From Verrucomicrobiota bacterium (GTDB lineage: Bacteria; Verrucomicrobiota; Kiritimatiellia; JAKQHR01): 64,000 nt of DNA. A program made the position numbers and the translations under genes. The notes under the pieces were generated by a model, which saw only the letters and a list, made by a program, of their open reading frames with translations, was not told where the DNA came from and did no database searches. This document shows positions 3,182 through 40,027 of the stretch, in pieces; the stretch's first letter is position 1, and every line of letters begins with the position of its first letter. The stretch spans positions 1,557 to 65,556 of the forward strand of contig JAKQHR010000015.1 of the NCBI GenBank assembly GCA_029557905.1, written 5' to 3'.

Positions 3182-4303
3182 ATGAAGATTGCTTTTGTGA
3201 AACAGAAATATGTCCCCTTTGGCGGAGGGGAGCTGTATCTCGAAAGGCTGGCCGGGGCCTGCCGCGACCGGGGGGACGAGGTCCATTTGATTACTGCCGC
3301 CTGGCCGGGGAACAGAGTTTCTGCTTTCACTGTTCATCCTGTTCCTGTTCGAAACTGGTCTCATGCCTCGGTGGCGAGGTCTTTCTCGCACAATCTGAAG
3401 GAGATCATCCGGTCGGTCGGGTTCGATGTGGTCTTCAGTCTGGACCGGACCGAACAGCAGCACATCTGGCGTGCGGGCGAGGGGGCTCATCCGGTCTGGC
3501 TGGACCGCCGCGGCGAATTTGAGCCGGCGTGGAAAGTCAGGCTGGCGCGTCTGTCATCGCGGCAAAGGACCCTGTTGAAGCTGGAGAGGCGATGCGTGAG
3601 CCGGACCCCTGTGATTATCGCGAATTCGCAGATGGTGAAAAATGATCTCGAGAACTGCTATGATCTTTCCGGAAAACGCGTGGAAATAATTCACAATGGC
3701 GTTGATTTTTCCCGCTTTTCTCCGGACGGACGCGAAGAGGCGCGCACCCAGGTGCGCTCACGCTTGCAGGTGAATCCCGACGGCCCGCTGCTGCTGTTTG
3801 CCGGAAGCGGGTTTCGCAGGAAGGGGCTCCCGGAACTGATGCGTGCGCTGCGTGGCGTGCCCGATGCGGTCCTGCTGGTTATCGGCCGGGACAAATCCGC
3901 CCCCTGGATTCGTTTGGCTGCGAGTCTGGGGGTCTCTGGCCGGGTGCGTTTTCTGGCCCCATCCGAATCTCTGCCGGAGCTGTATCGCGCGGCCGATGTG
4001 ACGGTGTTCCCGACATGGTTTGATTCCTTCGGGTTTGTCGGACTCGAGTCCATGGCCTGCGGGACCCCGCTGGTCACGACCCCTTTTGCCGGTGTATCGG
4101 AGCTGGTCCGCGAGGGGGTCAATGGCGCGGTGATCGCGCGCCCGGATGCCGCCGATGAACTGGCGGCGGCCATACAAGACCAGGTTTCCCGGAAAGACAG
4201 GAGCCGGGCCATCGCGGATTCCGTGAGAGAATATTCTCTGGAAAACAACATCCGCCGAACCCTTGCGGTCATAGATGACACCGCGTTCAGCCGCAAATCA
4301 TGA
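3182..4303 (+). CDS. Glycosyltransferase family 4 (WaaG/RfaG-like)
   Basis: GGGE N-terminal motif, RKG, and DSFGFVGLESMACGTP (EX7E-type with Asp in place of the first Glu). Confidence 0.9.
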   Translation: MKIAFVKQKYVPFGGGELYLERLAGACRDRGDEVHLITAAWPGNRVSAFTVHPVPVRNWSHASVARSFSHNLKEIIRSVGFDVVFSLDRTEQQHIWRAGEGAHPVWLDRRGEFEPAWKVRLARLSSRQRTLLKLERRCVSRTPVIIANSQMVKNDLENCYDLSGKRVEIIHNGVDFSRFSPDGREEARTQVRSRLQVNPDGPLLLFAGSGFRRKGLPELMRALRGVPDAVLLVIGRDKSAPWIRLAASLGVSGRVRFLAPSESLPELYRAADVTVFPTWFDSFGFVGLESMACGTPLVTTPFAGVSELVREGVNGAVIARPDAADELAAAIQDQVSRKDRSRAIADSVREYSLENNIRRTLAVIDDTAFSRKS

Positions 4304-5039
4304 GCTTTGCCGGACATGTCCGCCAGCGAAAGCGAAGCACGGGATGTTCAGCCGCGACAGCTCCTGCCATTCGATTGAGAAGCGTGAAATAATATTGATG
4401 AAACATTCTGCTCGGCGAATTTCGCAGAATTTCCGGGGTCAGCCCGCTTCCGGCCGCTTTTGAGATGGCCTCCTTGAGCGTCCAGACTTTGTAGAATGCC
4501 CGCACGCGCTCCGGTTCCGGAAGTTTGCTGATCCTGTTTATTTCTTCCCCGGAACAGGATTTGAGCATCATGCGCTGCAGGTCTCTGACGGGCCTTTCTT
4601 CTTCAATATCAACCCCGACCGGCCATGATTTTGCCAGGGCGAACAGCAGATCGCTCCCGGTATGGGAAACGCTGAAGAACAGCGGGCGAAGGCCGTCCCG
4701 GCTGACCGGCATCATCGGCTGCCCTCCGGCGCTGTACTCCAGCGCGCATGGATACAGCCTGCTTCCGGTATGCAGGCCCAGCAGCCGCCTCAACAGGCCC
4801 CGGCGGATCATGAAACTGTTCTGCGGCTCCTGCCGCAGGAATCTTCCGGCCCGGGCGGCATCATCCGGAGTGAGCCTGCTGCGGGCCGGTTCGAGCAGGC
4901 TGTTTGTGTCCGACAGATCAAAATACCAAAGCTGAATATCGCCCGGCTGCAGCGTGTCGGTTTGGACATTCCACTCTCCGCGCGTGAAGCGGGGCTCTAT
5001 GCATGTTGAATCCGGCATCATCACTCCAGAATAATCCAC
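4287..5039 (-). CDS. Sfp-type 4'-phosphopantetheinyl transferase
   Basis: FSVSHT, VGVDIE and WTLKEAISKA motifs; divergent from an ACP-containing gene. Confidence 0.9.
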   Translation of the reverse strand: MDYSGVMMPDSTCIEPRFTRGEWNVQTDTLQPGDIQLWYFDLSDTNSLLEPARSRLTPDDAARAGRFLRQEPQNSFMIRRGLLRRLLGLHTGSRLYPCALEYSAGGQPMMPVSRDGLRPLFFSVSHTGSDLLFALAKSWPVGVDIEEERPVRDLQRMMLKSCSGEEINRISKLPEPERVRAFYKVWTLKEAISKAAGSGLTPEILRNSPSRMFHQYYFTLLNRMAGAVAAEHPVLRFRWRTCPAKLMICG

Positions 5040-5128
5040 AGTTGATGTCTGTGATCAAGCCCGGGGTGATGGGAACTGGACACACGGTTCATCTTTGAGT
5101 ATGTTCCGGGACTTTCTTTTGGAGCAGG

Positions 5129-7837
5129 ATGAAAGTCAGAGGGGAATACAGGAGCATCATTGACGTGGTTGAGGCGCTGACGGCGACGGATCCCGGCGCT
5201 GCGGCATGCACCTTTCTTGCGGACGGACTGAACGACCGGTGTGCATGGACCCGGCGCGATTTGTACAGCCGCGCCTGTGCGGTGGCCAGAGTTCTGTCGG
5301 ACCGCAAAGCCCGCGGCCAGCCGGCTCTGCTCCTGTACTATCCCGGCCTGGAATTTCTTGCGGCGCTGTTCGGCTGTCTTTTCTCGGGGGTTGTTGCCAT
5401 CCCGGCCTATCCTCCGGGCATCAGCGCGCGTTCCTCGCGGCGAATTGAGAGCATTCTGGAGGATGCCGGTTCGTCACTGATTCTGACCACATCCAGAATA
5501 AGGGAAACGCGCCGCACAAGCATGGACCGTCACTCGGCTCTGCCGCGCCAGGCCTGGATTGAGACTGAACTGATTGCATTGGACTCGGCTGAAGACTGTG
5601 TTCCTGTCCGGGCGCAGGAAAGCGATGTGGCCTATCTGCAGTATACCTCCGGCTCCACATCAACCCCCAAGGGTGTAGTTGTCACCCATGGCAATCTGTT
5701 CCACAACCTCACCTGCATTGACCGGACATTCAATGTTTCCGGCGGGTCCGGAATTGCTTCCTGGATGCCCCACTTTCATGATTTCGGCCTTGTGTTCGGT
5801 CTTCTTGCGCCGATCTTCACGGGAAAGCCCTGCACTCTGATGCCTCCGGCGGTTTTTGTGCAGAATCCGTGGCTGTGGCTGAAGGCCATCTCCGACGCCC
5901 GTGCCAGTCATGCTGCCGCCCCCAACTTTGCCTATGACCTGTGCAATACCCGCATAACAGATGCCCAGCTGGAAACGCTTGATTTGTCCTGCATCACGGC
6001 GCTGCTTAATGGCGCGGAGCCCGTTCGCGCATCCACGCTGGATGAATTCACGCGGCGTTTTGCGGTCTGCGGATTCCGGCGCGAAATGTTTTGTCCCGTG
6101 TATGGCCTGGCCGAGATCACCGTCGGGGCGGTTTGCACCCGTTTTGATGAACCGCCGGTCTGTTTGTCCGTGGATGCGGACGCGATCGAGCAGCACCATG
6201 CTGTGCCCGCGGAGGGGAATGCTCCCAAGAGCCGCCTGCTGGTTTCCTGCGGGCATGAAGTGTTCGGACACCGAATGGAAATTGTGGATCCGGTGGCTCT
6301 TGTGCGCGTACCGAAGGGCGGGGTGGGTGAAATCTGGCTGGATTCTCCCAGCGTGTGTGCGGGGTACTGGAACCGGCCGGATGAAACCCGGCAAACCTTC
6401 CAGGCTTGTCTGGCAGGCACGAATGAGGGGCCGTTCCTGCGCACCGGCGATCTGGGGTTCATGCACGACGGGAATTTGTATATCACCGGCCGCATTAAGG
6501 ACCTCATTATCATTCACGGGGTTAACTATTATCCGCAGGACATTGAGCTGTCGTGCGAGAAGGCGCATCGCGCCCTCAAAGCGAATGCCGGCGCGGCCTT
6601 CTCCGTGGAGCGCGGCGGATCAGAAAAGCTGGTGGTGGTGTACGAACAGGACCGCACCGTGAAAGACCCGGATATCGGCCAGATCGCGATGGCTGTGCGC
6701 CACGCGGTGTCTGAAGAGCATGAGCTGCAGATTTATGACTTCGTCATGGTGCGGCCGGGCACGATTCCCAAGACTTCCAGCGGAAAAATCCAGCGGCATG
6801 CGTGCAAAGCGGATTATCTGAACGGCAGCCTGAAGGTGGTTGCATCCAGCCGGCTTGAAATTGCGGCCGCCGGAGAAAGAAATATCGCGCCACCCGCTGA
6901 TGAAATGGAGCGGCAGCTGGCGCGGATATGGGAGGAAGTCCTCGAGATATCGCCGATCGGGGTGACCGACAACTATTTCGATCTCGGGGGGAACTCGCTC
7001 CATGCCCTGCGTATCATCGGTAAAATTGGAGAGACAACCGGCCGTGAACTGCAGCTGACCGATTTGTTTCAGACTCCGACGATACGCGGAGTGGCTGAGC
7101 TGCTGCGGCGGGCGGACGAAACCGCCGAGTTGATCGCGCTGGTCCCGTTGCAGCCGGCGGGGACATGTACTCCGTTTTTCTGCGTGCATCCAGGCGGCGG
7201 AATGGTCATGTGCTTCAATGATCTGGCGCACAGCGTCGGAAAGGATCAGCCGTTCTATGCTCTGCAGTCGCAGGGTCTGGATGGCCGTCGTTCCCCGCTC
7301 AAGCGTATTGAAGACATGGCCTCTCTGTACATTCGCGAAATAAAAACAGTGCAGCCTGCCGGGCCCTATCGGCTGGGGGGAATGTGCCTTGGCGGGGTCA
7401 TTGCCTATGAAATGGCGCAGCAGCTGGTGCGGCTGGGAGAGCCGGTGGAATTCCTGGGAGTGCTGGATACCCGTCGCCCACCCGGCTGGTACAGACCTCT
7501 GTTCCGCCAGCGCAGGGTGATCAAGGAGTGGCTGGGCATGATATCCCATGCGGGACAGAAGCGTGTGCTGAAGCGGATATGGCTGGCAAACGAGAAAGCC
7601 CGCAACCGGTATCGCCCGGAACCGTACCCCGGGAAAATTACGCTTTTCTGGAGCGATCACGAGGGTGATGAGCAGGCCGACCGGCAGGAAATGTGGCGCA
7701 GACTTGCGCTGGGCGGTCTTGACATAATTCCCATCGCGGGGGCATCGCATCGCGCCATCCTCGCGGCGCCTCATGTGCAGACGCTTGCAGACAGGATCGT
7801 GTCCTGCCTTGAACCTTTCAACGGGATCCGCTCATGA
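5129..7837 (+). CDS. Fatty acyl-AMP ligase - acyl carrier - thioesterase tridomain protein
   Basis: YLQYTSGSTSTPKG, WMPHFHDFGL, YGLAE, FAAL insertion ending LVSCG, LRTGDLG and PKTSSGKIQR; carrier motif DNYFDLGGNSL; TE with HPGGG, GMCLGG and GASH. Confidence 0.9.
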   Translation: MKVRGEYRSIIDVVEALTATDPGAAACTFLADGLNDRCAWTRRDLYSRACAVARVLSDRKARGQPALLLYYPGLEFLAALFGCLFSGVVAIPAYPPGISARSSRRIESILEDAGSSLILTTSRIRETRRTSMDRHSALPRQAWIETELIALDSAEDCVPVRAQESDVAYLQYTSGSTSTPKGVVVTHGNLFHNLTCIDRTFNVSGGSGIASWMPHFHDFGLVFGLLAPIFTGKPCTLMPPAVFVQNPWLWLKAISDARASHAAAPNFAYDLCNTRITDAQLETLDLSCITALLNGAEPVRASTLDEFTRRFAVCGFRREMFCPVYGLAEITVGAVCTRFDEPPVCLSVDADAIEQHHAVPAEGNAPKSRLLVSCGHEVFGHRMEIVDPVALVRVPKGGVGEIWLDSPSVCAGYWNRPDETRQTFQACLAGTNEGPFLRTGDLGFMHDGNLYITGRIKDLIIIHGVNYYPQDIELSCEKAHRALKANAGAAFSVERGGSEKLVVVYEQDRTVKDPDIGQIAMAVRHAVSEEHELQIYDFVMVRPGTIPKTSSGKIQRHACKADYLNGSLKVVASSRLEIAAAGERNIAPPADEMERQLARIWEEVLEISPIGVTDNYFDLGGNSLHALRIIGKIGETTGRELQLTDLFQTPTIRGVAELLRRADETAELIALVPLQPAGTCTPFFCVHPGGGMVMCFNDLAHSVGKDQPFYALQSQGLDGRRSPLKRIEDMASLYIREIKTVQPAGPYRLGGMCLGGVIAYEMAQQLVRLGEPVEFLGVLDTRRPPGWYRPLFRQRRVIKEWLGMISHAGQKRVLKRIWLANEKARNRYRPEPYPGKITLFWSDHEGDEQADRQEMWRRLALGGLDIIPIAGASHRAILAAPHVQTLADRIVSCLEPFNGIRS

Positions 7838-18240: not shown

Positions 18241-18386
18241 AGTCCTGCACCGTGTTTTCCCGAACGAAGTGAGGACAAACTCTGGTGCAGGGCCATGATG
18301 CTCCGGTGTCACGAATTGGATTGCACAACAGCATTGCGGGTTGTGCGGCAGAGCGGTACACTCACTTTTTATATTTGGAGCAGAAT

Positions 18387-19292
18387 ATGGATACACAACT
18401 GAGGGATTGCCTGAGTCCGGAGAACATTCTATTTGAGGTCGCCGCGACCACGCGTGATGAAGTCCTTACCCTGCTGGTGAATCATCTGGAGAGCACCCTG
18501 GACGGGTTCGATCCGCAGGAGGCCCTGCATGCGCTCAAGGAGCGCGAGGCTGTGCTGCCCACGGTTATTGCGCCCGGAGTGGCGCTTCCGCATGCCCGGC
18601 TGGACAATATGGACAAGACGCTGATCGCGGTAGCGACAACCCGCGGAGGCATTGTTTTTGACGCAGACAAGGATCCGGTCAATCTGATTCTGCTTGTGCT
18701 GACACCGAAGAACGATCCCAGCTCCTATCTGCGGGTGCTGGCCCTGCTGTCCGGCGCCCTCAAGGATCTGAAGATCAGGGAGTTTATCAAGGAAGCCTCT
18801 GCAGAGACGGTATCGGCGCTCTTTCGTTCCGGGGACCGGGGGCAAGGAGAGTATCTGACTGCGGCGGACATCATGAATGCCCGGCCGCTGACCCTGAAGG
18901 AAGGCGATACACTGCGGGCGGCCATTACCGCGCTGTGCTCCCGTCGACTTCTTGATATTTCCGTGGTGGATGACCAGGGAGATCTCCGGGGGGTGATCTG
19001 CATGGAGGATCTGCTGAGCCAGAGCCTCCCGCAGCACCTGCTCTGGATGGAGGATTTGTCTCCCATTCTGCGCTTCGAGCCGTTTGCCGAGATGATGAAG
19101 AAGGACAATGAAACCAAGCTGGCCGACTTCATGCATGAGGATTATGTGTCCGTGTCTCCCGATACGCCGGCGGTTCAGCTGGCCAAGATTTTCATTATGA
19201 AGCACACCCGTCAGATTCAGGTGCTGGAAGGCCGGCGGCTGGCCGGCGTGGTCAGCCTGGCGGGATTCACGACCAAACTGTTCTGGGCCTGA
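18387..19292 (+). CDS. PTS EIIA-like domain fused to a CBS pair
   Basis: GVALPHAR with the phospho-acceptor His; C-terminal tandem CBS (ADIM..., VVDDQGDLRGVI, DFMHEDYVSVSPDTP). Confidence 0.88.
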   Translation: MDTQLRDCLSPENILFEVAATTRDEVLTLLVNHLESTLDGFDPQEALHALKEREAVLPTVIAPGVALPHARLDNMDKTLIAVATTRGGIVFDADKDPVNLILLVLTPKNDPSSYLRVLALLSGALKDLKIREFIKEASAETVSALFRSGDRGQGEYLTAADIMNARPLTLKEGDTLRAAITALCSRRLLDISVVDDQGDLRGVICMEDLLSQSLPQHLLWMEDLSPILRFEPFAEMMKKDNETKLADFMHEDYVSVSPDTPAVQLAKIFIMKHTRQIQVLEGRRLAGVVSLAGFTTKLFWA

Positions 19293-19340
19293 TGCGTCTG
19301 TTCTTTTTCATCATTTCTTAAAATCACGGAGCAATATATC

Positions 19341-20759
19341 ATGCATGGCGGAGATGACCACGGGGGCGAACTGACACTCAGGCAGATGATGGTCCGAATG
19401 GCCCTGCTGCTCTTCATCAGCGGGACAACGGGTCTGTGCGGCGTCCGGATGGGGTTGAACTTTTCGCAGGCGGTGGCCACCTCGGTGTTTCTCGCGATTA
19501 TTCTCGGCACGCTTTTTTTCTGGAATTTCCGTCTCGCCATTGCATTCCTCGGCATTGGAGTGCTGATATTCACCCGGTCGCTCGATATTGACCATTTCGT
19601 CAAAGAGGCGTCGCTTCCGGTTATTCTTTTTCTGGTCGGCATGATGATTGTGGTCGGCGCGCTGCGCGATCTGGGCTTTTTCACATGGATCGTCCAGAGC
19701 ATCATTTCCATTCCGAAGATCACCGGACGCAAATTCATGGCCATTACGGCCGTGGCCTCGGCCCTGCTGGCCTGCGCGGTGGATGAAGTCACTTCAATCA
19801 TCTTTATTTCAACACTGATCTTTCAGGTCTGCAACCGCCTCAAGCTGAATCCCGCGCCCTACCTCATGATTTGCGTGCTCTGCACGAACATCGGCAGCTC
19901 CGGCACAATGATGGGCAATCCCGTGGGTATTTACATCGGCACCAAGGCCCATCTCAGTTTCGCTGATTTCATCCGCTGGGCATTTCCCGTCATGCTGCTG
20001 GCCCTGGGCTCCTGCGTGGCCGTCACGATGTTCTGGTATCGCCGGGACCTGGATGAATTTGATGTGCGGCTCAAGGACCGGATGGACCGCGACCTGAGTC
20101 TGGTCCCGAAGGTGAAGGTGCCTTACGGCCGGGGACTGGCGGTTCTTCTGCTGACCCTTGTGTTTATTGCGCTGCATCATACGCTGGAAGAGGCTCTGCA
20201 TCTGGATCCCAACAGCATTCTGCTGGTTGCTCCTCTGGCCTGCGCCGGCGTTATCATGATCTTCAAGCGCGATCGCGCCCGGCACTATGTCGAAGCCGAG
20301 GTGGACTGGTGGACGCTGCTCTTCTTCATGCTGTTGTTTGCCATTGCCGGAACCCTGGCTTATACCGGCGTGACGCGCCTGATGGCGGACGGCTTCACCC
20401 GCCGTTTCGGGACGGACCTGAATGTGCTGATCCCCGTGATCATGGCCACCACGGCCCTGGGCTCAGCCTTTGTGGACAATGTCATCTTTGTGGCCGCCTT
20501 TGCGCCGATCATTGAAGCGCTCGGGGAAAGCGTGAAAATCATGCCCTTGTGGTGGGCGCTTCTTTTCGGGGCCTGTTTCGGCGGAAACATCACGCTGATC
20601 GGCAGCACCGCCAACATCGTTGCGCTCGGGATGCTTGAAAAGGAATGCAGGATTCAGATCAGCTTTTTCCGATGGCTCAAGATCGGTGCGCTGTCATCGC
20701 TGGTCGCGTGCCTGATTGCCTGGGGCATGCTCGCGCTTCTTGCCCCCCTGATGCCCTGA
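19341..20759 (+). CDS. ArsB/NhaD (SLC13-like) ion transporter
   Basis: About 12 TM; CAVDEVTSII, NIGSSGTMMGNP, SAFVDNV and FGGNITLIGSTANIVA. Confidence 0.87.
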   Translation: MHGGDDHGGELTLRQMMVRMALLLFISGTTGLCGVRMGLNFSQAVATSVFLAIILGTLFFWNFRLAIAFLGIGVLIFTRSLDIDHFVKEASLPVILFLVGMMIVVGALRDLGFFTWIVQSIISIPKITGRKFMAITAVASALLACAVDEVTSIIFISTLIFQVCNRLKLNPAPYLMICVLCTNIGSSGTMMGNPVGIYIGTKAHLSFADFIRWAFPVMLLALGSCVAVTMFWYRRDLDEFDVRLKDRMDRDLSLVPKVKVPYGRGLAVLLLTLVFIALHHTLEEALHLDPNSILLVAPLACAGVIMIFKRDRARHYVEAEVDWWTLLFFMLLFAIAGTLAYTGVTRLMADGFTRRFGTDLNVLIPVIMATTALGSAFVDNVIFVAAFAPIIEALGESVKIMPLWWALLFGACFGGNITLIGSTANIVALGMLEKECRIQISFFRWLKIGALSSLVACLIAWGMLALLAPLMP

Positions 20760-20894
20760 AATGCCTCCACCGCGAAGAAACTTGAATAAGAATCGGCGAT
20801 TTGTTACACAATAATGCCGCAAGTGGCGCGGATGTGTCCGCGACCCGGCAACCAGGAGCATGTGGTGCCTGAATCCGTACAGTCGACATCCGTG

Positions 20895-22841
20895 ATGCTG
20901 CAGATCCCGCTGCGGAGAAAACTCTCGTTGATCTGGACGTATGCCCGGGAGCGGCTGATGCGCCAGGTGCATGCGGTGGCCTTCATCACGGGATATCTGG
21001 CGCTCTTTCAGCTTCTCGTGCTGCGCGCCCCGATTGCGGATTTTCTGAAAATCGCCGCGGGTATTCTTGCCGTGGTGGCGGGTCTGGCTTTTTTCATGGA
21101 AGGGCTGTTTCTGGCCATCATGCCCCTCGGGGAACGCTGCGGACTGCGCATGCCCGCGCGTGCCGGTCTGGGCCTGCTTGTGGCGTTTGCGGTGATCCTC
21201 GGAATTACCGCCACCTATGCGGAGCCGGCCATAGGATTCCTGAAGGCGCAGGGGAGTTCCACTCTGCCCTGGCGCGCGCCGCTGCTGTATTATCTCCTGA
21301 ACGCCGGCGCGCCGCTCACCGTGGGCGCGGTGGCCGTCGGGGTTGGCTTTGCCGTGGTGCTTGGGGTCTTCCGGTCCCTGCGCTCGTGGAGTTTCAAGCC
21401 TTTCCTGTACCTGACGATTCCCGTCCTTCTGGCGCTCTCGTACTGGGTTTCACGTGATCCGCGCACGGCCGCCATCATCGGACTGGCGTGGGATACCGGG
21501 GGGGTGACCACGGGGCCGGTGACCGTGCCGCTGGTGATCGCGCTGGGAATTGGAGTTTCACGCATTGCCGGCCGCGGCGATGAACCCTCCAGCGGCCTGG
21601 GTGTTGTTACGCTGGCTTCGGCGCTTCCGGTGATCATGGTCCTGCTGCTCGGCGCTGTGCTGGCCCCGCGGTTCCCGATGCCCGGCGGACCGGATGAGTT
21701 CTTTGCGCCGGAGCGTCACAATCAGTCGGTGCGGGTGGCCGGAAGCGAAGAGGCTTTTCGCGAACTGGCGGCAAACAATCTGTCTCCCGAGAAGGTCAAA
21801 ACCCGTTTCGGGACGGAATCCAAGAAGAAGCCCTCAGATGCCGGCCCGCGCCGGCATGTGCCGCGCAAGATGATGAGGGCCCATGCCGTCAACGCTCTGA
21901 AAGCCATTGTCCCGCTGGCCGCCGTGCTGCTTCTTGCGCTGCTGTTGATTGTGCGTGAGCGACTGCCGCACAACGACGAGGTTTCGCTGGGGCTGGTGTT
22001 CAGCCTGGTTGGGATGCTGCTGTTCAGTTACGGCATGGATCGCGGTCTTTCAAGCCTTGGAAATCAGGCCGGCCGCTCTCTGCCGCGCGCGTGGGAGGCC
22101 ACGGAGCGCCCGGACAAGGCCGTGACCTACAGCGGCATAAATGAGAACCTTCTGGTGCGCGCCGTCCGCCCCAACGGCTCCGTCGCAGAGTATCTTCCGC
22201 TGGCGGACAAGGGCGGGCCGCAGTTTGTGCCGTTCATCCGCGAACGGTACGATGCGGACCGGGCCGAGTACCGCTGGATTCCCGAACAGGGTCCTGTGGC
22301 CGGCGATGAGGATTTCTGGGGCTATGCGCTGGTGCTGCTCTTTGTGTTTGTGATGGGTTTGGGCGCAACCATTGCGGAACCTTCACTGAACGCGCTGGGC
22401 GTGACACTGGAAGAGCTGACGACGGGAACCTACAAGCGCTCTTTCCTCATAGTGACCGTGGCCCTGGGCGTGGGCGCCGGCATGGCCATGGGATTCTGCC
22501 GAATACTGTTCGCCTGGCCCATGATCCCCCTTCTCGCGGGGTGTTACCTCGTGGCTCTTGCGCTGACCTGCATTTCGACGGAAGAAATGTCGGCCATTGC
22601 ATGGGACTGCGCGGGCGTAACGACTGGTCCCATCACGGTTCCGCTGGTTATTGCCGCAGGTTTGGGCATTGGCCAGCGCGCCGGCGCGGCCGAGGCTTTC
22701 GGCGTGGTGACCATGGCCTCCGTGTTTCCGATCATCGCGGTGCTGCTTTCCGGTTTTCTGATCGCCGCCCGGCGAAACGCGCTCGACCTTGAAAATCTGC
22801 AGATGGATGCGGCCCCGGCAGAACGGGAGGCAAAGCCGTGA
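20895..22841 (+). CDS. DUF1538 membrane protein with two fused DUF1538 units
   Basis: Duplicated motifs TYAEPA/TIAEPSL and AWDTGGVTTGPVTVP/AWDCAGVTTGPITVP. Start uncertain (20814 or 20895). Confidence 0.82.
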   Translation: MLQIPLRRKLSLIWTYARERLMRQVHAVAFITGYLALFQLLVLRAPIADFLKIAAGILAVVAGLAFFMEGLFLAIMPLGERCGLRMPARAGLGLLVAFAVILGITATYAEPAIGFLKAQGSSTLPWRAPLLYYLLNAGAPLTVGAVAVGVGFAVVLGVFRSLRSWSFKPFLYLTIPVLLALSYWVSRDPRTAAIIGLAWDTGGVTTGPVTVPLVIALGIGVSRIAGRGDEPSSGLGVVTLASALPVIMVLLLGAVLAPRFPMPGGPDEFFAPERHNQSVRVAGSEEAFRELAANNLSPEKVKTRFGTESKKKPSDAGPRRHVPRKMMRAHAVNALKAIVPLAAVLLLALLLIVRERLPHNDEVSLGLVFSLVGMLLFSYGMDRGLSSLGNQAGRSLPRAWEATERPDKAVTYSGINENLLVRAVRPNGSVAEYLPLADKGGPQFVPFIRERYDADRAEYRWIPEQGPVAGDEDFWGYALVLLFVFVMGLGATIAEPSLNALGVTLEELTTGTYKRSFLIVTVALGVGAGMAMGFCRILFAWPMIPLLAGCYLVALALTCISTEEMSAIAWDCAGVTTGPITVPLVIAAGLGIGQRAGAAEAFGVVTMASVFPIIAVLLSGFLIAARRNALDLENLQMDAAPAEREAKP

Positions 22842-23974
22842 AACGGATGGATGTCTCCAGGATTGTCTGCATTGCCGATGTGCGGCTGACGGAACGGCTG
22901 GAAGCCGAGGCTGACCGCATTGGACTGCGGGAGACCTGGTCAACACGCGGCAAGCAGGTTGCCCTCAAGGCGCGCTCCGTCTGGCAGCCGTTCGGCCGGC
23001 GGCTTCCAATGGCCGAGTCGCCCTCCGACATCATTCGCTTCTATGTCCCGCGGCAGCACGAACGCGCGGCGATGATCCGCCTGGCTGCGGCCGCGGATCT
23101 CTACCTGCCGGGCCGCGGGAGCGTCTATGCCGAGGATGTGGCTCTCATCGGGGATGGGGTGCAGCCATGGGATGAGGAGAAGCTCTGCGCCGACCAGCCC
23201 TCATGGGTTGTTGAGAACCGGATGGAGCCGGCCCCCTATGACATGATCTACTGCATCGTGCAGCGCGGCCGCGGAGGAGAACTGGCCCGCACCATGCTGG
23301 AAATGGGGCTCTGCGTGCCGATCGTCAGTTTCGGCGAGGGCATGGGCATGCGCGACAGGCTCGGGCTCCTGCGCATCACCATCCCGCAGGAGAAGGAAAT
23401 CCTTCTGTTTGTTGTTCCGCCGGGAGACTCGGATTTTGTGATGGATGTGGCCGTGCGGAAAGCGAACCTGCACGAGCCGGGAAACGGTTTTCTGTGCCGC
23501 GTTCCCGTGCGCGCACTGGCCGTGAATTCGCGGATGCATCTGGACCGGCGCAAGCATGTCGCGACCATGGAGCAGGTCATCAGCACGCTTGATCAGCTTC
23601 GCGGATCCACCGACTGGCGGAGAATGTCCGCGGCGGCCCGGCATCATCGCGGAGCGGAGCCTGAAGGCCTGGTGCGCTTCACGCTGATTTGCGAAGAGGG
23701 CACATCGTCAGCTCATGTGCGCGCCGCGCTGGATGCCGGCGCGGGCGGCGCGACGCTTTCGCTCCTTTCCCGGCGTGTGCCCGCCCCGCACGAAGGGGGC
23801 GGGGAAGTTGCCATGGCGTCCCGCGCCCGGGAATGCTGTGATCTCGTCATTCCCCGCGCGTTAAAGGAACGCATCGAGGAAGCGGTGACCCGGACCGGGC
23901 TGTTTGCTGAATCCTCCGGCGGTTTCATTGAAACCGGCATTGTATACGATGCGATCACGGCGGCCGGCCGCTGA
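22838..23974 (+). CDS. Protein with tandem PII-like (GlnB-like fold) domains
   Basis: Best-conserved middle unit IYCIVQRGRG...GEGMG...EKEILLFVV...PGNGFLCRVPV; degenerate units on both sides; translationally coupled to DUF1538. Confidence 0.68.
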   Translation: MKRMDVSRIVCIADVRLTERLEAEADRIGLRETWSTRGKQVALKARSVWQPFGRRLPMAESPSDIIRFYVPRQHERAAMIRLAAAADLYLPGRGSVYAEDVALIGDGVQPWDEEKLCADQPSWVVENRMEPAPYDMIYCIVQRGRGGELARTMLEMGLCVPIVSFGEGMGMRDRLGLLRITIPQEKEILLFVVPPGDSDFVMDVAVRKANLHEPGNGFLCRVPVRALAVNSRMHLDRRKHVATMEQVISTLDQLRGSTDWRRMSAAARHHRGAEPEGLVRFTLICEEGTSSAHVRAALDAGAGGATLSLLSRRVPAPHEGGGEVAMASRARECCDLVIPRALKERIEEAVTRTGLFAESSGGFIETGIVYDAITAAGR

Positions 23975-24045: not shown

Positions 24046-25242
24046 ATGCCGTACATCACAAAAGGCCTTCTGAAAGATTTTTATCTGCCGGACTACGCTG
24101 ACGGCAGCACCGTCAATCTGCTGGCTTCCATCATCCGTTCGCGCGGCGGAAAATCGCCGCACAAAAACCTCAAGGGCCTGGACCCGCGCCGGCTGCGCGA
24201 GGCGCGCAATGTCATTTATCTGGTCGTGGACGGACTGGGGGTCAGCCAGCTTGAGCGGTTCCTGAGCATGGGGAAGGGGAAGCAGTTTTTTGCAAAGCAT
24301 CCCTGGACGACCATTTCCTCCGTTTTCCCCGCGACGACCGCCGCGGCCGTGACAACCTTTGCCACCGGCGCATCCCCGGCTGAGCATGCGGTGCTGAGCT
24401 GGTACCTGAACCTGCACGACCTCGGCGTCGTGACGATGATTCTTCCGGCCATCACCCGCACCGGAAGCCCGCTGGCCCGCGAGGAGTTTGATCTGCATGC
24501 CTATCTTGATCTGCCCTCGTACATAGACAGCGTGAAAGGCCGCAGGGGACTGATCTCGTACGAGGATATTCCGCAGAGCCGCTATTCAAGGGCGGGCACC
24601 CGATGGACCGACCGCATGGCCGCCCGCACACTGCAGGGGCTTGAGCGGCAGATCATGGCCTTTGTGAGGAAGCGGGGGCGGAAAATGGCCTATGCCTACT
24701 GGCCCGAATATGATTCCAACTGCCATGAGCACGGGGTGACGCACAGGAAGACGGACCGGCATCTGCGCCAGATTGACGAATCCCTCGCGCGCCTGGTGCG
24801 CAAACTGCAGGGCACGGACACGCGCCTGTTTGTGCTGGCGGATCACGGACTCATTGACGCGCCCGCTGCACAGCGCATAGATCTGGGCGCGGTTCCCGGA
24901 TTCTACGGCTGCCTGGCCACGATCACGTCCGGCGATGCCCGTTCTGTTTCCTGCTTCGTGCGGCCGGGCAGGGTGAAGGCTTTCAAGGAAATCGTGAACA
25001 GGAAACTGGGCCATGCCTGTGTATGCACGCCGGGCGAGGTCCTGCTGGCCATGAACGCCTTTGGGCCGGGCAAGCCTCACAAGGCTTTGGCGAACAGGGC
25101 GGGGGATTTCTTCCTGATGGCCAGGCCGGGCTATGCCTTCACCGCGACACTTCCGGGATGGGAGCCCCGGTTCCACGTCGCCTATCACGGCGGCATGTCG
25201 GCGGATGAAGTGCTGGTGCCGCTGTACTCAGTTCAATGCTGA
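24046..25242 (+). CDS. Alkaline phosphatase superfamily nucleotide pyrophosphatase/phosphodiesterase
   Basis: LVVDGLG, VFPATT (Thr nucleophile), DSNCHEHG, LADHG and YHGG. Confidence 0.87.
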   Translation: MPYITKGLLKDFYLPDYADGSTVNLLASIIRSRGGKSPHKNLKGLDPRRLREARNVIYLVVDGLGVSQLERFLSMGKGKQFFAKHPWTTISSVFPATTAAAVTTFATGASPAEHAVLSWYLNLHDLGVVTMILPAITRTGSPLAREEFDLHAYLDLPSYIDSVKGRRGLISYEDIPQSRYSRAGTRWTDRMAARTLQGLERQIMAFVRKRGRKMAYAYWPEYDSNCHEHGVTHRKTDRHLRQIDESLARLVRKLQGTDTRLFVLADHGLIDAPAAQRIDLGAVPGFYGCLATITSGDARSVSCFVRPGRVKAFKEIVNRKLGHACVCTPGEVLLAMNAFGPGKPHKALANRAGDFFLMARPGYAFTATLPGWEPRFHVAYHGGMSADEVLVPLYSVQC

Positions 25243-38306: not shown

Positions 38307-39182
38307 ATGCGCAGAACCTGCCAGTGGAAATGCCGTGATCGAACCCTCGCCTGCGGCTCGCGCACACTGATCATGGGCATCCTTAACGTGACGCCCGACT
38401 CGTTTTCCGACGGGGGCCTGTATCGTTTCGCGCCCGATGCCGCGGCGCATGCGCTGGACATGGAGGCGGATGGCGCCGCCATAATCGATATTGGCGGAGA
38501 GTCCACGCGTCCGGGGGCGGCAGAAGTGCCTGCGGATGAAGAGCTGGGGCGGGTCATTCCGGTCATCCGCATGCTGGCGGGGAAAACCCGCTGCGCGCTT
38601 TCGATTGACACCACCAAAGCCCGGGTGGCCCGGGCGGCGCTGGAAGCCGGATGCCACATCGTGAACGACATTTCCGCGGGCGCCGCTGATCCGGAGATGC
38701 TCTCCGTGGTTCGGGAGTCCGGCGCCGGCTATATTCTGATGCACATGCAGGGCACTCCGCGCACCATGCAGCAGAATCCGGTTTATGAGAATGTGCTGGA
38801 AGAGGTCTGCCGCCTGCTTTCCGACCGGTCGGAGGCCTGCCTGGCGGCCGGCGTGGCGCATGAGGCGCTGGCGCTGGATCCGGGCATCGGATTCGGGAAA
38901 ACCGTGGACCACAATCTCGACCTTCTGGCCGGGCTGGATCGCCTGGCCGCGCTCGGATTCCCTGTCGTGGCGGGCCTGTCGCGGAAGAGTTTTCTCGGGG
39001 TGCTGACCGGCGCCGGTCCGTCGGGCCGGCTGGCGGGAGGGCTTGCGGCGATGGCCTTTGCGGCGGCTCATGGCGCCGCGGTTTTACGCGTGCATGATGT
39101 AAAGGAGTCTTGCGATGCCGCCCGCGTTGTGGATATACTGCTCGCGCATGAACAGGATATGAAAGAATGCCGGAAATCATAG
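38307..39182 (+). CDS. folP: Dihydropteroate synthase
   Basis: MGILNVTPDSFSDGG, DIGGESTRPG, DPGIGFGK, SRKSF and LRVHDV. Confidence 0.96.
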   Translation: MRRTCQWKCRDRTLACGSRTLIMGILNVTPDSFSDGGLYRFAPDAAAHALDMEADGAAIIDIGGESTRPGAAEVPADEELGRVIPVIRMLAGKTRCALSIDTTKARVARAALEAGCHIVNDISAGAADPEMLSVVRESGAGYILMHMQGTPRTMQQNPVYENVLEEVCRLLSDRSEACLAAGVAHEALALDPGIGFGKTVDHNLDLLAGLDRLAALGFPVVAGLSRKSFLGVLTGAGPSGRLAGGLAAMAFAAAHGAAVLRVHDVKESCDAARVVDILLAHEQDMKECRKS

Positions 39183-40027
39183 CCCAGATTATCACGCCGA
39201 TGCTGGAAATGCTCGTGCTCGCTGTGATGTATTACTATGTGTTCCTCTTTCTGCGGGGCACACGCGGCTGGCAGATGCTGGTCGCTTTTGTGGTCGCTCT
39301 GCTGGTCCTGCAGTTTGTGACGGAGTTCTTCCATTTGACCACCCTGAACTGGGTGCTAGCGAAGTTCACGGCCTATATAGCCATCGCGTTCATTGTGATC
39401 TTCCAGCCTGAAATCCGGCGTGCGCTTGCCGAACTGGGCAAACAGCATGTGTTCGCGGGCACACAGCGCGAGAGAGGCCTGTGCGATCATCTGGTGCAGG
39501 CCACCCTGATGCTGGCCGAACGGAAAATCGGCGCGCTGATAGCCGTGGAGCAGGAAATCGGCATGCGGACCATTCAGGAAACGGGCACCCCCCTTGACGC
39601 CCGCGTCACGCCCGAACTGCTCTCCACCATTTTCTATCCGGGCACGCCGCTGCATGACGGCGGGGTGCTGGTCCGCGAAAACCGCGTTGTGGCGGCCGGC
39701 TGCCTCTTCCCCCTTTCGCAGCGTGTCGAGCTGGGACGTTCTCTGGGCACGCGGCACCGTGCCGCCATCGGACTGACGGAGGAGACTGATGCCGTTGTGC
39801 TCGTGGTTTCAGAAGAAACCGGCACCATCTCCATCGCCTATCGCGGGCGCCTCCTGCGCCCGCTTGACGAAGACAAGCTGCGCCGGATCCTGACGCGCAT
39901 CATGCTGCGCAGCCGCAAGGGGAAGAGCCGGATCAACCGTGTGCAGGAACTGCTGGATCTCAGCCCGGACGGCGTGGCCAAAACCGAGGTGATCTCATCG
40001 GAGCAGGGAGGGGCGGATGCCGTTTGA
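39167..40027 (+). CDS. cdaA: Diadenylate cyclase CdaA
   Basis: Three TM, FQPEIRRAL, PLHDGG and LGTRHRAA. Confidence 0.93.
   Translation: MPEIIAQIITPMLEMLVLAVMYYYVFLFLRGTRGWQMLVAFVVALLVLQFVTEFFHLTTLNWVLAKFTAYIAIAFIVIFQPEIRRALAELGKQHVFAGTQRERGLCDHLVQATLMLAERKIGALIAVEQEIGMRTIQETGTPLDARVTPELLSTIFYPGTPLHDGGVLVRENRVVAAGCLFPLSQRVELGRSLGTRHRAAIGLTEETDAVVLVVSEETGTISIAYRGRLLRPLDEDKLRRILTRIMLRSRKGKSRINRVQELLDLSPDGVAKTEVISSEQGGADAV

Follow-up and report, generated by a model that had tools for sequence, protein, structure and literature searches.

A single-chain triple PII-like protein paired with a fused double-DUF1538 membrane protein in a Verrucomicrobiota genome

The window analysed here, a stretch of 64,000 nucleotides from a Verrucomicrobiota bacterium, contains two overlapping genes that encode a membrane protein with two fused DUF1538 repeats and a smaller protein in which three non-identical PII-type units are joined in one chain (Table 1). 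The pairing recurs in more than ten bacterial phyla, and the triple-PII chain is strongly asymmetric, with a T-loop that is near-invariant in unit 2 only. The pair probably works as a transporter that carries its own asymmetric metabolic switch. Pairs of a PII protein and a transporter are already known as a kind; the single-chain triple-PII/DUF1538 form is new, and a literature search found no description of a DUF1538-PII pairing or of a single-chain PII protein.

The gene junction and the DUF1538 partner

The two genes are read in different frames and overlap in the tetranucleotide GTGA, which holds the GTG start of the PII gene (22838-22840) and the TGA stop of the membrane gene (22839-22841). 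A Shine-Dalgarno-like GGGAGG precedes the PII start. The open reading frame of the membrane gene may begin at 20814 or 20895, and the ATG at 20895 is favoured, since alignments with homologues begin at residue 2 of the 648-aa form. A scan for promoters and terminators gave nothing informative, and a search for RNA elements between 17300 and 25400, including c-di-AMP-type riboswitches, found no riboswitch, with a tRNA as its sole match.

Table 1. Features of the DUF1538/triple-PII locus. Positions are those of the window; secondary-structure elements (E, H) are from AlphaFold2 (AF2) models.
Feature	Position	Strand	Basis or remark
Fused double-DUF1538 (UmpA-like + UmpB-like) membrane protein	20895..22841	+	648 aa, long form
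Inter-repeat linker, aa 260-323	21672..21863	+	K/R-rich, partly helical (H266-305)
Beta-rich insert, repeat 2, ~70 aa (aa 400-470)	22092..22304	+	Long-form-specific; AF2 strands E410-413, 421-424, 430-438, 441-447, 458-461
Translational-coupling junction	22825..22841	+	Direct sequence reading
Shine-Dalgarno-like GGGAGG	22825..22830	+	
GTGA overlap	22838..22841	+	
Single-chain triple PII-like protein	22838..23974	+	378 aa
PII-like unit 1, aa 2-105	22841..23152	+	A-type duplicate by hhalign, AF2; E2-14/H15-28/E33-44/E58-71/H72-85/E94-105
PGRGSVY, aa 91-97	23108..23128	+	Unit 1 B-loop
PII-like unit 2, aa 132-228	23231..23521	+	A-type by HMM, hhalign, AF2; E132-142/H146-155/E162-169/E184-193/H195-208/E217-228
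Unit-2 T-loop and base, aa 166-183, GEGMGMRDRLGLLRITIP	23333..23386	+	Entropy, near-invariance
PGNGFLC, aa 214-220	23477..23497	+	Unit 2 B-loop
Conserved unit 2-3 linker, aa 238-262, RKHVATMEQVISTLDQLRGSTDWRR	23549..23623	+	Entropy, predicted helix
PII-like unit 3, aa 278-373	23669..23956	+	B-type by hhalign, AF2; E278-286/H290-299/E305-313/E330-339/H340-351/E363-373
SSGGFIE, aa 359-365	23912..23932	+	Unit 3 B-loop, degenerate

Pfam matches PF07556 (DUF1538) to the 648-aa protein in two stretches (E 2e-102, 341 bits, cut-off 22.6), in agreement with a preliminary description of the locus that had read the partner as a fusion of two DUF1538 units. NCBIfam splits the same protein into a UmpA-like half (NF041627, 193.7 bits against an equivalog cut-off of 490) and a UmpB-like half (NF041628, 152.1 bits against 500). 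Since both scores lie far under the equivalog cut-offs, the fusion is a family member rather than an equivalog, and the UmpAB substrate is not confidently transferable to it. To our knowledge the DUF1538 family has one functional report and no solved structure, and neither sequence nor fold searches of the PDB turned up a relative of the window protein. Its AlphaFold2 model (pLDDT 78.9, pTM 0.78) gave no credible Foldseek match there (best E 0.015, TM <=0.2).

The partner had also been called an uncharacterised transporter, which overlooks that functional report: the DUF1538 proteins UmpA and UmpB of Halomonas zhaodongensis function as a heterodimer and form a two-component Na+(Li+,K+)/H+ antiporter (PMC5484666). 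The window fusion likewise has one UmpA-like and one UmpB-like DUF1538 repeat and covalently mimics this heterodimer; unlike UmpAB, its halves are fused in 648 aa and carry an extra linker and a beta-rich insert. The UmpAB paper mentions PII 0 times, and UmpAB is active in E. coli without any PII partner (PMC5484666), so a partner of this type is dispensable for the basal activity of the homologue. The PII partner could have a non-regulatory role.

The motif WDxGGVTTGP is conserved in each DUF1538 repeat, and the helices are broken there in the model. Taken with the UmpAB precedent this suggests that the fusion is a transporter, with cation/H+ as a possible substrate by the same analogy. The inter-repeat linker region is rich in basic residues (15 K+R per 79 aa), its helices are modelled at pLDDT 80-88, and it is shorter or missing in DUF1538 fusions of 497-519 aa. 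The insert, with conserved G428, P446, Y459, P463 and P467, is absent from these short forms and specific to the long forms paired with triple-PII proteins. By the positive-inside rule both linker and insert would be cytoplasmic, and the insert is a candidate cytoplasmic docking domain.

Fold, homology and origin of the triple-PII protein

A PII-superfamily unit has about 100-112 residues in a ferredoxin-like beta-alpha-beta-beta-alpha-beta fold, with a T-loop joining beta2 to beta3 and a B-loop ahead of beta4, and the superfamily assembles as trimers whose ligand clefts lie between the subunits. Modelling of the 378-aa protein with AlphaFold2 from a 47-sequence alignment (pLDDT 81.6, pTM 0.83, 53 residues with pLDDT <50) gave three such units, the outer ones included. 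Foldseek comparison, of single chains only, matched the model to GlnK/PII chains with probability 1.0 and a TM of 0.62-0.71 on target. The open reading frame and the motifs PGRGSVY, PGNGFLC and SSGGFIE are present as first described, and the proposal of three PII-type folds in one chain is upheld by the model, by Foldseek and by the transitive homology to PF00543 set out below. Each unit was described as a beta-alpha-beta unit ending in one of the motifs; the number of units was right, but each is a double beta-alpha-beta and the motifs mark the B-loop and the start of beta4, not unit ends. The pTM argues for a confident overall arrangement of the three units in one compact body, which may be packed like a PII trimer.

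The protein has at least 182 homologues, and clustering at 50% identity leaves 244 family representatives with E<=1e-30. Among the 150 best of these, most have about 365-390 aa and keep three units, and all are too short to represent a natural fusion of DUF1538 with PII.

Direct sequence searches gave little. Pfam and NCBIfam returned no match for the 378-aa protein (no PF00543 at E<=0.1), weak PF00543 matches were found in 3 of 47 family members (best E 0.018), and a single-sequence search of the PDB gave nothing meaningful. Profile searches of the PDB made weak contact with the B-loop region of GlnK1 for unit 2 (E 0.03) and with SbtB over its full length for unit 3 (E 0.2), and no unit aligned significantly by hhalign with a canonical-PII profile made from 21 relatives. 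Homology to PF00543 is, as judged from sequence profiles, transitive only, and runs through the single PII proteins linked to DUF1538. One of these, the stand-alone protein of locus L100, passes PF00543 (40.7 bits), matches a canonical PII profile (E 2e-6) and aligns by hhalign with unit 1 (E 8.4e-6 over 101 columns), unit 2 (E 1.6e-20 over 103 columns; 82 bits by HMM) and unit 3 (E 1.4e-9 over 104 columns). Unit 2 also matches the PII protein of locus L020 (E 4e-11) and is the unit closest to the stand-alone DUF1538-linked proteins. Units 1 and 2 align with each other (hhalign profile-profile E 5e-8 over 95 columns), which together with the full-length L100 alignments indicates that the internal repeat is not due to chance.

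In relatives within the same phylum the DUF1538 gene is followed by a pair of separate PII genes, by one double-PII gene or by a single PII gene, and PF00543-positive stand-alone or double PII proteins lie beside DUF1538 at loci L100, L020, L086, L087 and L088. In these relatives the first PII domain has its match in unit 2, the second in unit 3. By these matches and the alignment of unit 1 with unit 2, the first two units are copies of one A-type unit, and unit 3 is of a B-type, the counterpart of the second PII in two-gene or double-domain relatives. The stand-alone and double proteins share with the triple form the position directly downstream of DUF1538, homologous units and the T-loop motif GxGx(5-7)LGLL..PEKE. 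They differ in having one or two units and in passing the Pfam P-II cut-off (35-41 bits), whereas the triple form has no Pfam match, has gained an A-type duplicate and a conserved linker helix, and no longer carries the T-loop motif in its first and third units. No canonical PF00543 gene was found in the window's own genome (96% complete); 16 of 21 relatives have one.

Asymmetry between the units

Conservation was scored on 80 triple-PII sequences from more than ten phyla. The T-loop of unit 2 is the most conserved segment of the protein (mean entropy 0.62 bits), with G166, G168, G170, R172, G176, R179 and P183 near-invariant, and its motif is also present in the L100 protein. Residues 174-180 have low pLDDT, as a flexible loop would give. 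The T-loops of unit 1 (aa 45-57, 2.66 bits) and unit 3 (2.89 bits, indel-rich) are variable, and the asymmetry between units first proposed for this chain is plain from these values. The unit 1 B-loop is conserved at L88/P91/G92/G94 (1.15 bits); units 1 and 2 keep near-invariant glycine-rich motifs in the B-loop and at the base of the T-loop, and the K186-E187 pair is likewise near-invariant. In unit 3 the B-loop (2.32 bits) and T-loop base are not conserved, and a canonical-like G-x-G-G-A-T motif is retained at the start of beta2 (aa 301-306), where GAGGAT is near-invariant.

Canonical PII proteins carry the B-loop signature G-[DY]-G-[KR]-[IV]-[FW], with an ATP-binding lysine, and a modification site at T-loop Tyr51/Ser49. 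Neither is found in the 378-aa protein. Units 1 and 2 retain the G-x-G of the B-loop but the lysine is replaced (K90 corresponds to F218, S95 and I364), and Tyr is absent from the unit-2 T-loop GMGMRDRLGLLRITIP. The canonical C-terminal arginines also appear to be replaced, so nucleotide binding may have been lost or altered. Of the three non-equivalent ligand sites once suggested, probably one or two are kept and at least one is degenerate, given that unit 3 conserves neither its B-loop nor its T-loop base.

The linker between units 2 and 3 is near-invariant at A242, E245, Q246, D252, G256, W260 and R261 (1.01 bits), and a helix is predicted at 244-255 with low confidence (pLDDT 39-46). The segment is specific to the triple-PII family and absent from the linkers of double-PII relatives, and its helix is a candidate second interaction element.

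Conservation of the pairing and a proposed mechanism

Of 41 loci that could be evaluated, drawn from more than ten phyla, 39 have the triple-PII gene directly 3' of a fused DUF1538 gene of the long form, and the module reaches poorly studied groups such as Kiritimatiellia, Gemmatimonadota, Latescibacterota, Zixibacteria and Fibrobacterota. Counted over all 46 genome loci, 39 have it immediately downstream on the same strand; of the other seven, five run into contig ends, an IS interrupts one, and the last, L070, has an intact long-form DUF1538 gene without an adjacent triple-PII gene. Metagenome loci at 41-47% identity show the same pairing. The module is patchy, occurring in 20 of 301 genomes of the phylum, and the two partners vary together: long DUF1538 fusions, which have about 640-750 aa and include the additional linker and beta-insert, co-occur with triple-PII proteins and short fusions (497-519 aa) with separate or double PII proteins. 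DUF1538 is the sole conserved neighbour, the others differing even at 86% identity. An EIIA-CBS regulator and a CitMHS transporter, encoded upstream, and a type I phosphodiesterase encoded downstream were considered as parts of the system and rejected, as none of the three is conserved beside the module; the upstream pair is missing even from an 86%-identical relative.

In GlnK-AmtB and SbtB-SbtA, a PII or PII-like trimer gates a co-transcribed transporter through its T-loop. The operon linkage typical of such PII-gated pairs is present here, with a PII-superfamily gene adjoining, and probably co-expressed with, a membrane transporter gene, and the flexible T-loop is again the most conserved element. 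The known regulators are homotrimers acting on a trimeric channel or transporter, whereas the window protein is one chain with three non-identical units and one conserved T-loop, and its partner is a pseudo-dimeric DUF1538 protein.

On balance we favour a two-gene transport module in which a dedicated, asymmetric PII pseudo-trimer docks 1:1 on the transporter and gates transport. Gene 1 would encode a fused UmpAB-type (DUF1538 x2) ion-coupled secondary transporter, and gene 2 a translationally coupled, dedicated cytoplasmic subunit of the PII superfamily, in which A'-A-B units that are separate or double in relatives would be joined into an intramolecular pseudo-trimer. This would dock on the cytoplasmic face of the transporter, with the single near-invariant unit-2 T-loop as the main contact, aided by the conserved linker helix, and with the long-form-specific linker and beta-insert as the surfaces on the transporter side. 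A small ligand, perhaps an adenine nucleotide or c-di-AMP, would bind in one or two inter-unit clefts and switch the T-loop conformation, thereby gating transport as in GlnK-AmtB and SbtB-SbtA; the cleft that involves the degenerate unit-3 B-loop is probably non-functional. Gene structure, fold, homology, uneven conservation and the recurrent gene pairing are established here, and from them we infer the physical complex, the T-loop contact, the ligand, the direction of regulation and the cation/H+ substrate.

PstA and DarA are c-di-AMP-binding PII-like proteins, and cation transport is commonly under c-di-AMP control. The triple-PII protein resembles PstA/DarA in having a PII-like fold in organisms that make c-di-AMP (a DAC domain occurs in 31 of 32 module genomes), but no sequence match between them was detected. 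As DAC also occurs in 11 of 14 controls, c-di-AMP synthesis does not discriminate module genomes and is compatible with such a ligand rather than evidence for it.

A bolder version, possible but more doubtful, is that this is the first natural single-chain PII, and that it keeps an A2B heterotrimer stoichiometry for which relatives bring together separate A and B proteins. The broken three-fold symmetry would leave one functional T-loop and one or two live clefts, and would thereby solve the mismatch between a 3-fold sensor and a pseudo-2-fold transporter with an unsolved fold, gating cation/H+ exchange 1:1 by adenine nucleotide or c-di-AMP. Few signal transducers are as widespread as PII proteins, and as far as we know all those studied are homotrimers whose three sites are equivalent and anticooperative. 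If confirmed, a natural asymmetric pseudo-trimer in one chain would show how PII symmetry can break, and would be a tool for mutating every site and every T-loop separately. DUF1538, if gated, would join AmtB and SbtA as a third class of PII-gated transporter, and characterising one pair would provide annotation for hundreds of gene pairs.

The best-surviving alternative, though unlikely, is that the triple-PII protein serves the long-form transporter as an obligatory part of its structure or assembly rather than as a ligand-responsive switch. It would then be a stabilising cytoplasmic cap, built on a PII scaffold with vestigial nucleotide sites. The poorly kept ATP-binding residues and missing PF00543 match would fit this, as would the strict partnership with long-form-specific insertions and a conserved linker helix that regulatory PII proteins lack. 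However, near-invariant glycines of the B-loop and T-loop base and K186-E187 (units 1 and 2) and GAGGAT (unit 3) form the pattern expected of a retained small-molecule site, a flexible yet invariant T-loop is typical of switchable PII contacts, and UmpAB works without such a subunit (PMC5484666).

Gating of the adjacent transporter is also preferred to a role as signal transducer with its main targets elsewhere, in enzymes or transcription factors, the DUF1538 linkage reflecting co-expression rather than a complex. Canonical PII proteins have many targets, and a wider signalling role could fall to the triple-PII protein in a genome without the canonical gene that most relatives have. We think this improbable: DUF1538 is the only neighbour conserved over more than ten phyla, the genes are translationally coupled, the form of PII co-varies with that of the transporter, and the patchy distribution fits an accessory module better than a global regulator.

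It seems just as improbable that each unit trimerises with its equivalents in other chains, or that chains swap domains, to build a lattice or ring of higher order on a multimeric transporter. In favour of this, double-PII relatives cannot close a trimer from one chain, so that assembly between chains exists in the family, and the 2-fold and 3-fold symmetries are mismatched. Against it, the monomer model has a pTM of 0.83 despite its low-confidence residues, the inter-unit linkers, with 26 and 49 aa, could span the distances needed to close the body within one chain, and most of the 150 best of 244 representatives have exactly three units at about 370 aa.

Gene pair and its distribution

The region from 20895 to 23974 carries two open reading frames on the same strand, encoding a membrane protein of two fused DUF1538 repeats and an adjoining triple PII-like protein. 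The second gene starts with GTG, which overlaps the stop codon of the DUF1538 gene in the sequence GTGA and has GGGAGG 8 nt before it; the overlap and the GGGAGG motif are a classic signature of translational coupling. A longer frame for the DUF1538 gene opens at 20814; alignments with homologues begin at residue 2 of the 648-aa form.

Features of the gene pair, its surroundings and the encoded PII-like protein (nucleotides of the window, or residues marked aa; entropies are means over the triple-PII family)
Feature	Position	Strand	Basis or value
EIIA(Ntr)-like and CBS-pair protein with CitMHS/ArsB-type transporter	18285-20759	+	
Fused double-DUF1538 membrane protein, 648 aa	20895-22841	+	ORF reading
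Triple PII-like protein, 378 aa	22838-23974	+	ORF reading
Type I phosphodiesterase/nucleotide pyrophosphatase (alkaline-phosphatase superfamily)	24046-25242	+	
Diadenylate cyclase gene (DAC, PF02457)	39167-40027	+	G000:C30:41053-41406 (own genome and contig), E 4e-41
PII-like unit 1	aa 2-105		AlphaFold2 model
PII-like unit 2	aa 132-228		AlphaFold2 model
PII-like unit 3	aa 278-373		AlphaFold2 model
Unit-1 T-loop			2.66 bits
Unit-2 T-loop			0.62 bits
Unit-3 T-loop, indel-rich			2.89 bits
Unit-1 B-loop			1.15 bits
Linker helix	aa 244-262		1.01 bits

Scanning a single genome for each species gave 46 loci with relatives of the DUF1538 membrane protein, spread over Kiritimatiellia/Verrucomicrobiota, Spirochaetota, Gemmatimonadota, Desulfobacterota, Planctomycetota, Latescibacterota, Zixibacteria, Handelsmanbacteria, Fibrobacterota, Lentisphaerota and Dependentiae. 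In 39 of them the next gene downstream, on the same strand, encodes a triple-PII homologue of about 370 aa; five more loci end at a contig edge. At the L075 locus of a Desulfobacterales MAG (3980-6067) an oppositely oriented gene for a 391-aa transposase/integrase-like protein cuts the fused DUF1538 gene after its first repeat, and this looks like a module copy disrupted by an insertion sequence. The sole intact exception among evaluable loci is L070 in a Fibrobacterota MAG (3974-6619), where a long-form DUF1538 fusion (653 aa) is followed by an unrelated convergent SEC-C-motif gene in place of the triple-PII gene. Metagenome loci at 41-47% identity again show the pair, with other neighbours differing.

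The EIIA-CBS protein, CitMHS transporter, type I phosphodiesterase and SurA-like protein do not recur beside the module, except for the two downstream genes, which do so in the closest relative. Directly upstream, the EIIA(Ntr)-CBS protein and CitMHS transporter form a second regulator-transporter pair, rejected as a part of the module as it is not conserved there even in an 86%-identical relative. The phosphodiesterase gene, 72 nt 3' of the triple-PII gene, is probably outside the module, since only the closest relative (L035) shares that arrangement.

An exhaustive profile search with the triple-PII protein gave 244 representatives of 50%-identity clusters (E<=1e-30). Most of the best 150 are 365-390 aa long, indicating a stable three-unit architecture, and the shorter ones resemble fragments. 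The module is patchy, occurring in 3 of 21 close relatives and 20 of 301 genomes of the phylum. No gene matching canonical PII (PF00543) turned up in the genome containing the window, which is 96% complete, while 16 of the 21 relatives, including a genome of the same genus, carry between one and four. Either such a gene falls in the absent 4% or the organism lacks GlnB/GlnK.

Fold and origin of the PII-like units

The preliminary description had proposed three PII-like units in one chain, ending in PGRGSVY, PGNGFLC and SSGGFIE. These motifs occur at aa 91-97, 214-220 and 359-365, and the predicted structure bears out the three-unit proposal, with three beta-alpha-beta-beta-alpha-beta units in the AlphaFold2 model (47 homologue sequences at 39-87% identity; mean pLDDT 81.6, pTM 0.83). 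The units are joined by linkers of 26 and 49 residues, and each has a beta2-beta3 loop at the T-loop position. Model confidence is low in the T-loops of units 2 (174-180) and 3 (319-326) and in the linker between them (239-273). The protein has no matches in Pfam or NCBIfam. Foldseek searches of the PDB with the model retrieved dozens of GlnK/GlnB/PII chains (probability 1.00), at target-normalised TM scores of 0.62-0.71 over 87-98 columns, equivalent to one unit. A flavoenzyme, the sole match ranked higher, was dismissed as noise (RMSD 20 Å, TM 0.15-0.18).

Units 1 and 2 align over 95 columns (hhalign E 5e-8) and are, by sequence, clearly duplicates of each other; unit 3 is far more divergent and matches unit 2 in register at E 1.4e-3. 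Compared directly with a canonical-PII profile built from 21 relatives, the units gave no significant match, and PDB profile searches gave no more than weak matches, of GlnK1 to the B-loop region of unit 2 (E 0.03) and of SbtB to full-length unit 3 (E 0.2). Homology to PII was established through relatives in the same phylum with ordinary-sized PII-like genes directly 3' of the DUF1538 gene, arranged as single units (L100, L020), two separate genes (L086) or double-domain proteins (L087, L088). L100, L020 and both double proteins score 35-41 bits against PF00543, enough to pass its cut-off; the second gene of L086, gene B, falls below it (15.6 bits). The L100 protein aligns with the canonical profile (E 2.2e-6, 109 columns) and, over its full length, with unit 1 (E 8.4e-6, 101 columns), unit 2 (E 1.6e-20, 103 columns) and unit 3 (E 1.4e-9, 104 columns).

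By HMM bit score, the first domain of both double proteins is closest to unit 2; the second is closest to unit 3 in L087 and ties between units 3 and 2 in L088. In L086, gene A resembles units 2 and 1, and gene B resembles unit 3. These matches favour an A'-A-B reading of the triple protein, in which an A-type unit has been duplicated and a B-type unit comes last. In the L020/L083 locus of a Kiritimatiellia relative (G011:C3), a single-repeat DUF1538 gene is followed after 18 nt by a 101-aa PF00543-positive PII. This pair may represent the module in its minimal or ancestral state, which would imply a homodimeric transporter with a homotrimeric sensor.

The DUF1538 membrane partner

The 648-aa protein has two Pfam DUF1538 matches (PF07556, E 2e-102), and its halves resemble UmpA (193.7 bits) and UmpB (152.1 bits) in NCBIfam, far under the 490 and 500 bits set as equivalog cut-offs. 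Its AlphaFold2 model (33 sequences; pLDDT 78.9, pTM 0.78) predicts an all-helical membrane body in which a helix is broken at an invariant WDxGGVTTGPxTVP in both repeats. Broken helices of this sort are typical of ion-coupled carriers. The model also has a partly helical inter-repeat linker (H266-305) and a beta-rich insert (aa 400-470). Alignment with short fused relatives (497-519 aa) shows the long linker and insert to be specific to the long form, and in the phylum sample triple-PII proteins accompany the long form while separate or double PII proteins accompany the short form. The first 24 aa contain 6 lysines and arginines, the linker 15, and the 16 residues before the first helix of repeat 2 another 5. 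Under the positive-inside rule the linker and insert are tentatively placed in the cytoplasm, a placement that depends on how many times each repeat crosses the membrane.

No PDB relative was found by sequence, and the model had no credible Foldseek neighbour among 350,542 PDB chains (best E 0.015, TM <=0.2); the predicted structure suggests that the family may represent a transporter fold not yet solved. Function in the family has been reported once, for UmpAB from Halomonas zhaodongensis; complementation of E. coli KNabc and vesicle assays identified it as a heterodimeric Na+(Li+,K+)/H+ antiporter, and the paper makes no mention of PII (PMC5484666). Six papers were found to mention DUF1538, and neither their titles and abstracts nor the full text of the UmpAB paper link it to PII; no tandem, fused, triple or single-chain PII pseudo-trimer was found in the literature searched. 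PII-transporter pairing is already known as a kind; this pair would stand apart by its asymmetric candidate sensor in a single chain and by a transporter fold that appears unsolved.

Asymmetric conservation, proposed mechanism and candidate ligand

Across 80 non-identical members of the triple-PII family, drawn from more than 10 phyla, no segment is nearly as well conserved as the unit-2 T-loop, in which G166, G168, G170, R172, G176, R179 and P183 are near-invariant. Its sequence, GMGMRDRLGLLRITIPQEKE, resembles the stand-alone L100 T-loop, GQGIRERLGLLGLAIQPEKE. The linkers of double-PII proteins lack the linker helix, in which A242, E245, Q246, D252, G256, W260 and R261 are conserved.

A PII nucleotide cleft lies between two neighbouring subunits, one supplying its B-loop, T-loop base and K58, the other its G-x-x-G-x-T and C-terminal residues. 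Unit 1 keeps L88, P91, G92 and G94 in its B-loop. In unit 3 neither the B-loop nor the T-loop base is conserved, but beta2 still opens with a canonical-like G301-A-G-G-A-T306. Judged from this geometry and the motifs kept in each unit, a cleft using the unit-3 B-loop should be degenerate, and one joining the unit-3 GAGGAT to the unit-1 or unit-2 B-loop could be live. Ligand chemistry may differ from ATP/2-oxoglutarate since the B-loop lysine is replaced in all three units.

The most economical reading, and on conservation and analogy a reasonably probable one, is a transporter-plus-sensor unit of the GlnK-AmtB or SbtB-SbtA kind. The single-chain pseudo-trimer would dock 1:1 on the cytoplasmic face of the pseudo-dimeric transporter through its one conserved T-loop, the conserved linker helix possibly docking on the long-form-specific linker or insert, and the loop conformation would depend on ligand bound in one or two of the clefts between units. 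It is unlikely that the triple-PII protein is instead a structural subunit that does not switch, and more doubtful still that it is a signal transducer with targets elsewhere. Trimer-like packing of the three units in one chain is suggested by the pTM of the model; assembly of units between chains seems as improbable as a role with targets elsewhere.

For the transporter-plus-sensor unit, c-di-AMP is a candidate ligand. No riboswitch or other RNA element was found near the module genes. Each of the 12 genomes of the phylum that carry the module encodes a DAC domain, as do 19 of 20 carriers in other phyla and 11 of 14 control genomes, so its presence does not discriminate. The window itself carries a DAC gene about 15 kb downstream of the module, from which the organism is predicted to be able to make c-di-AMP.
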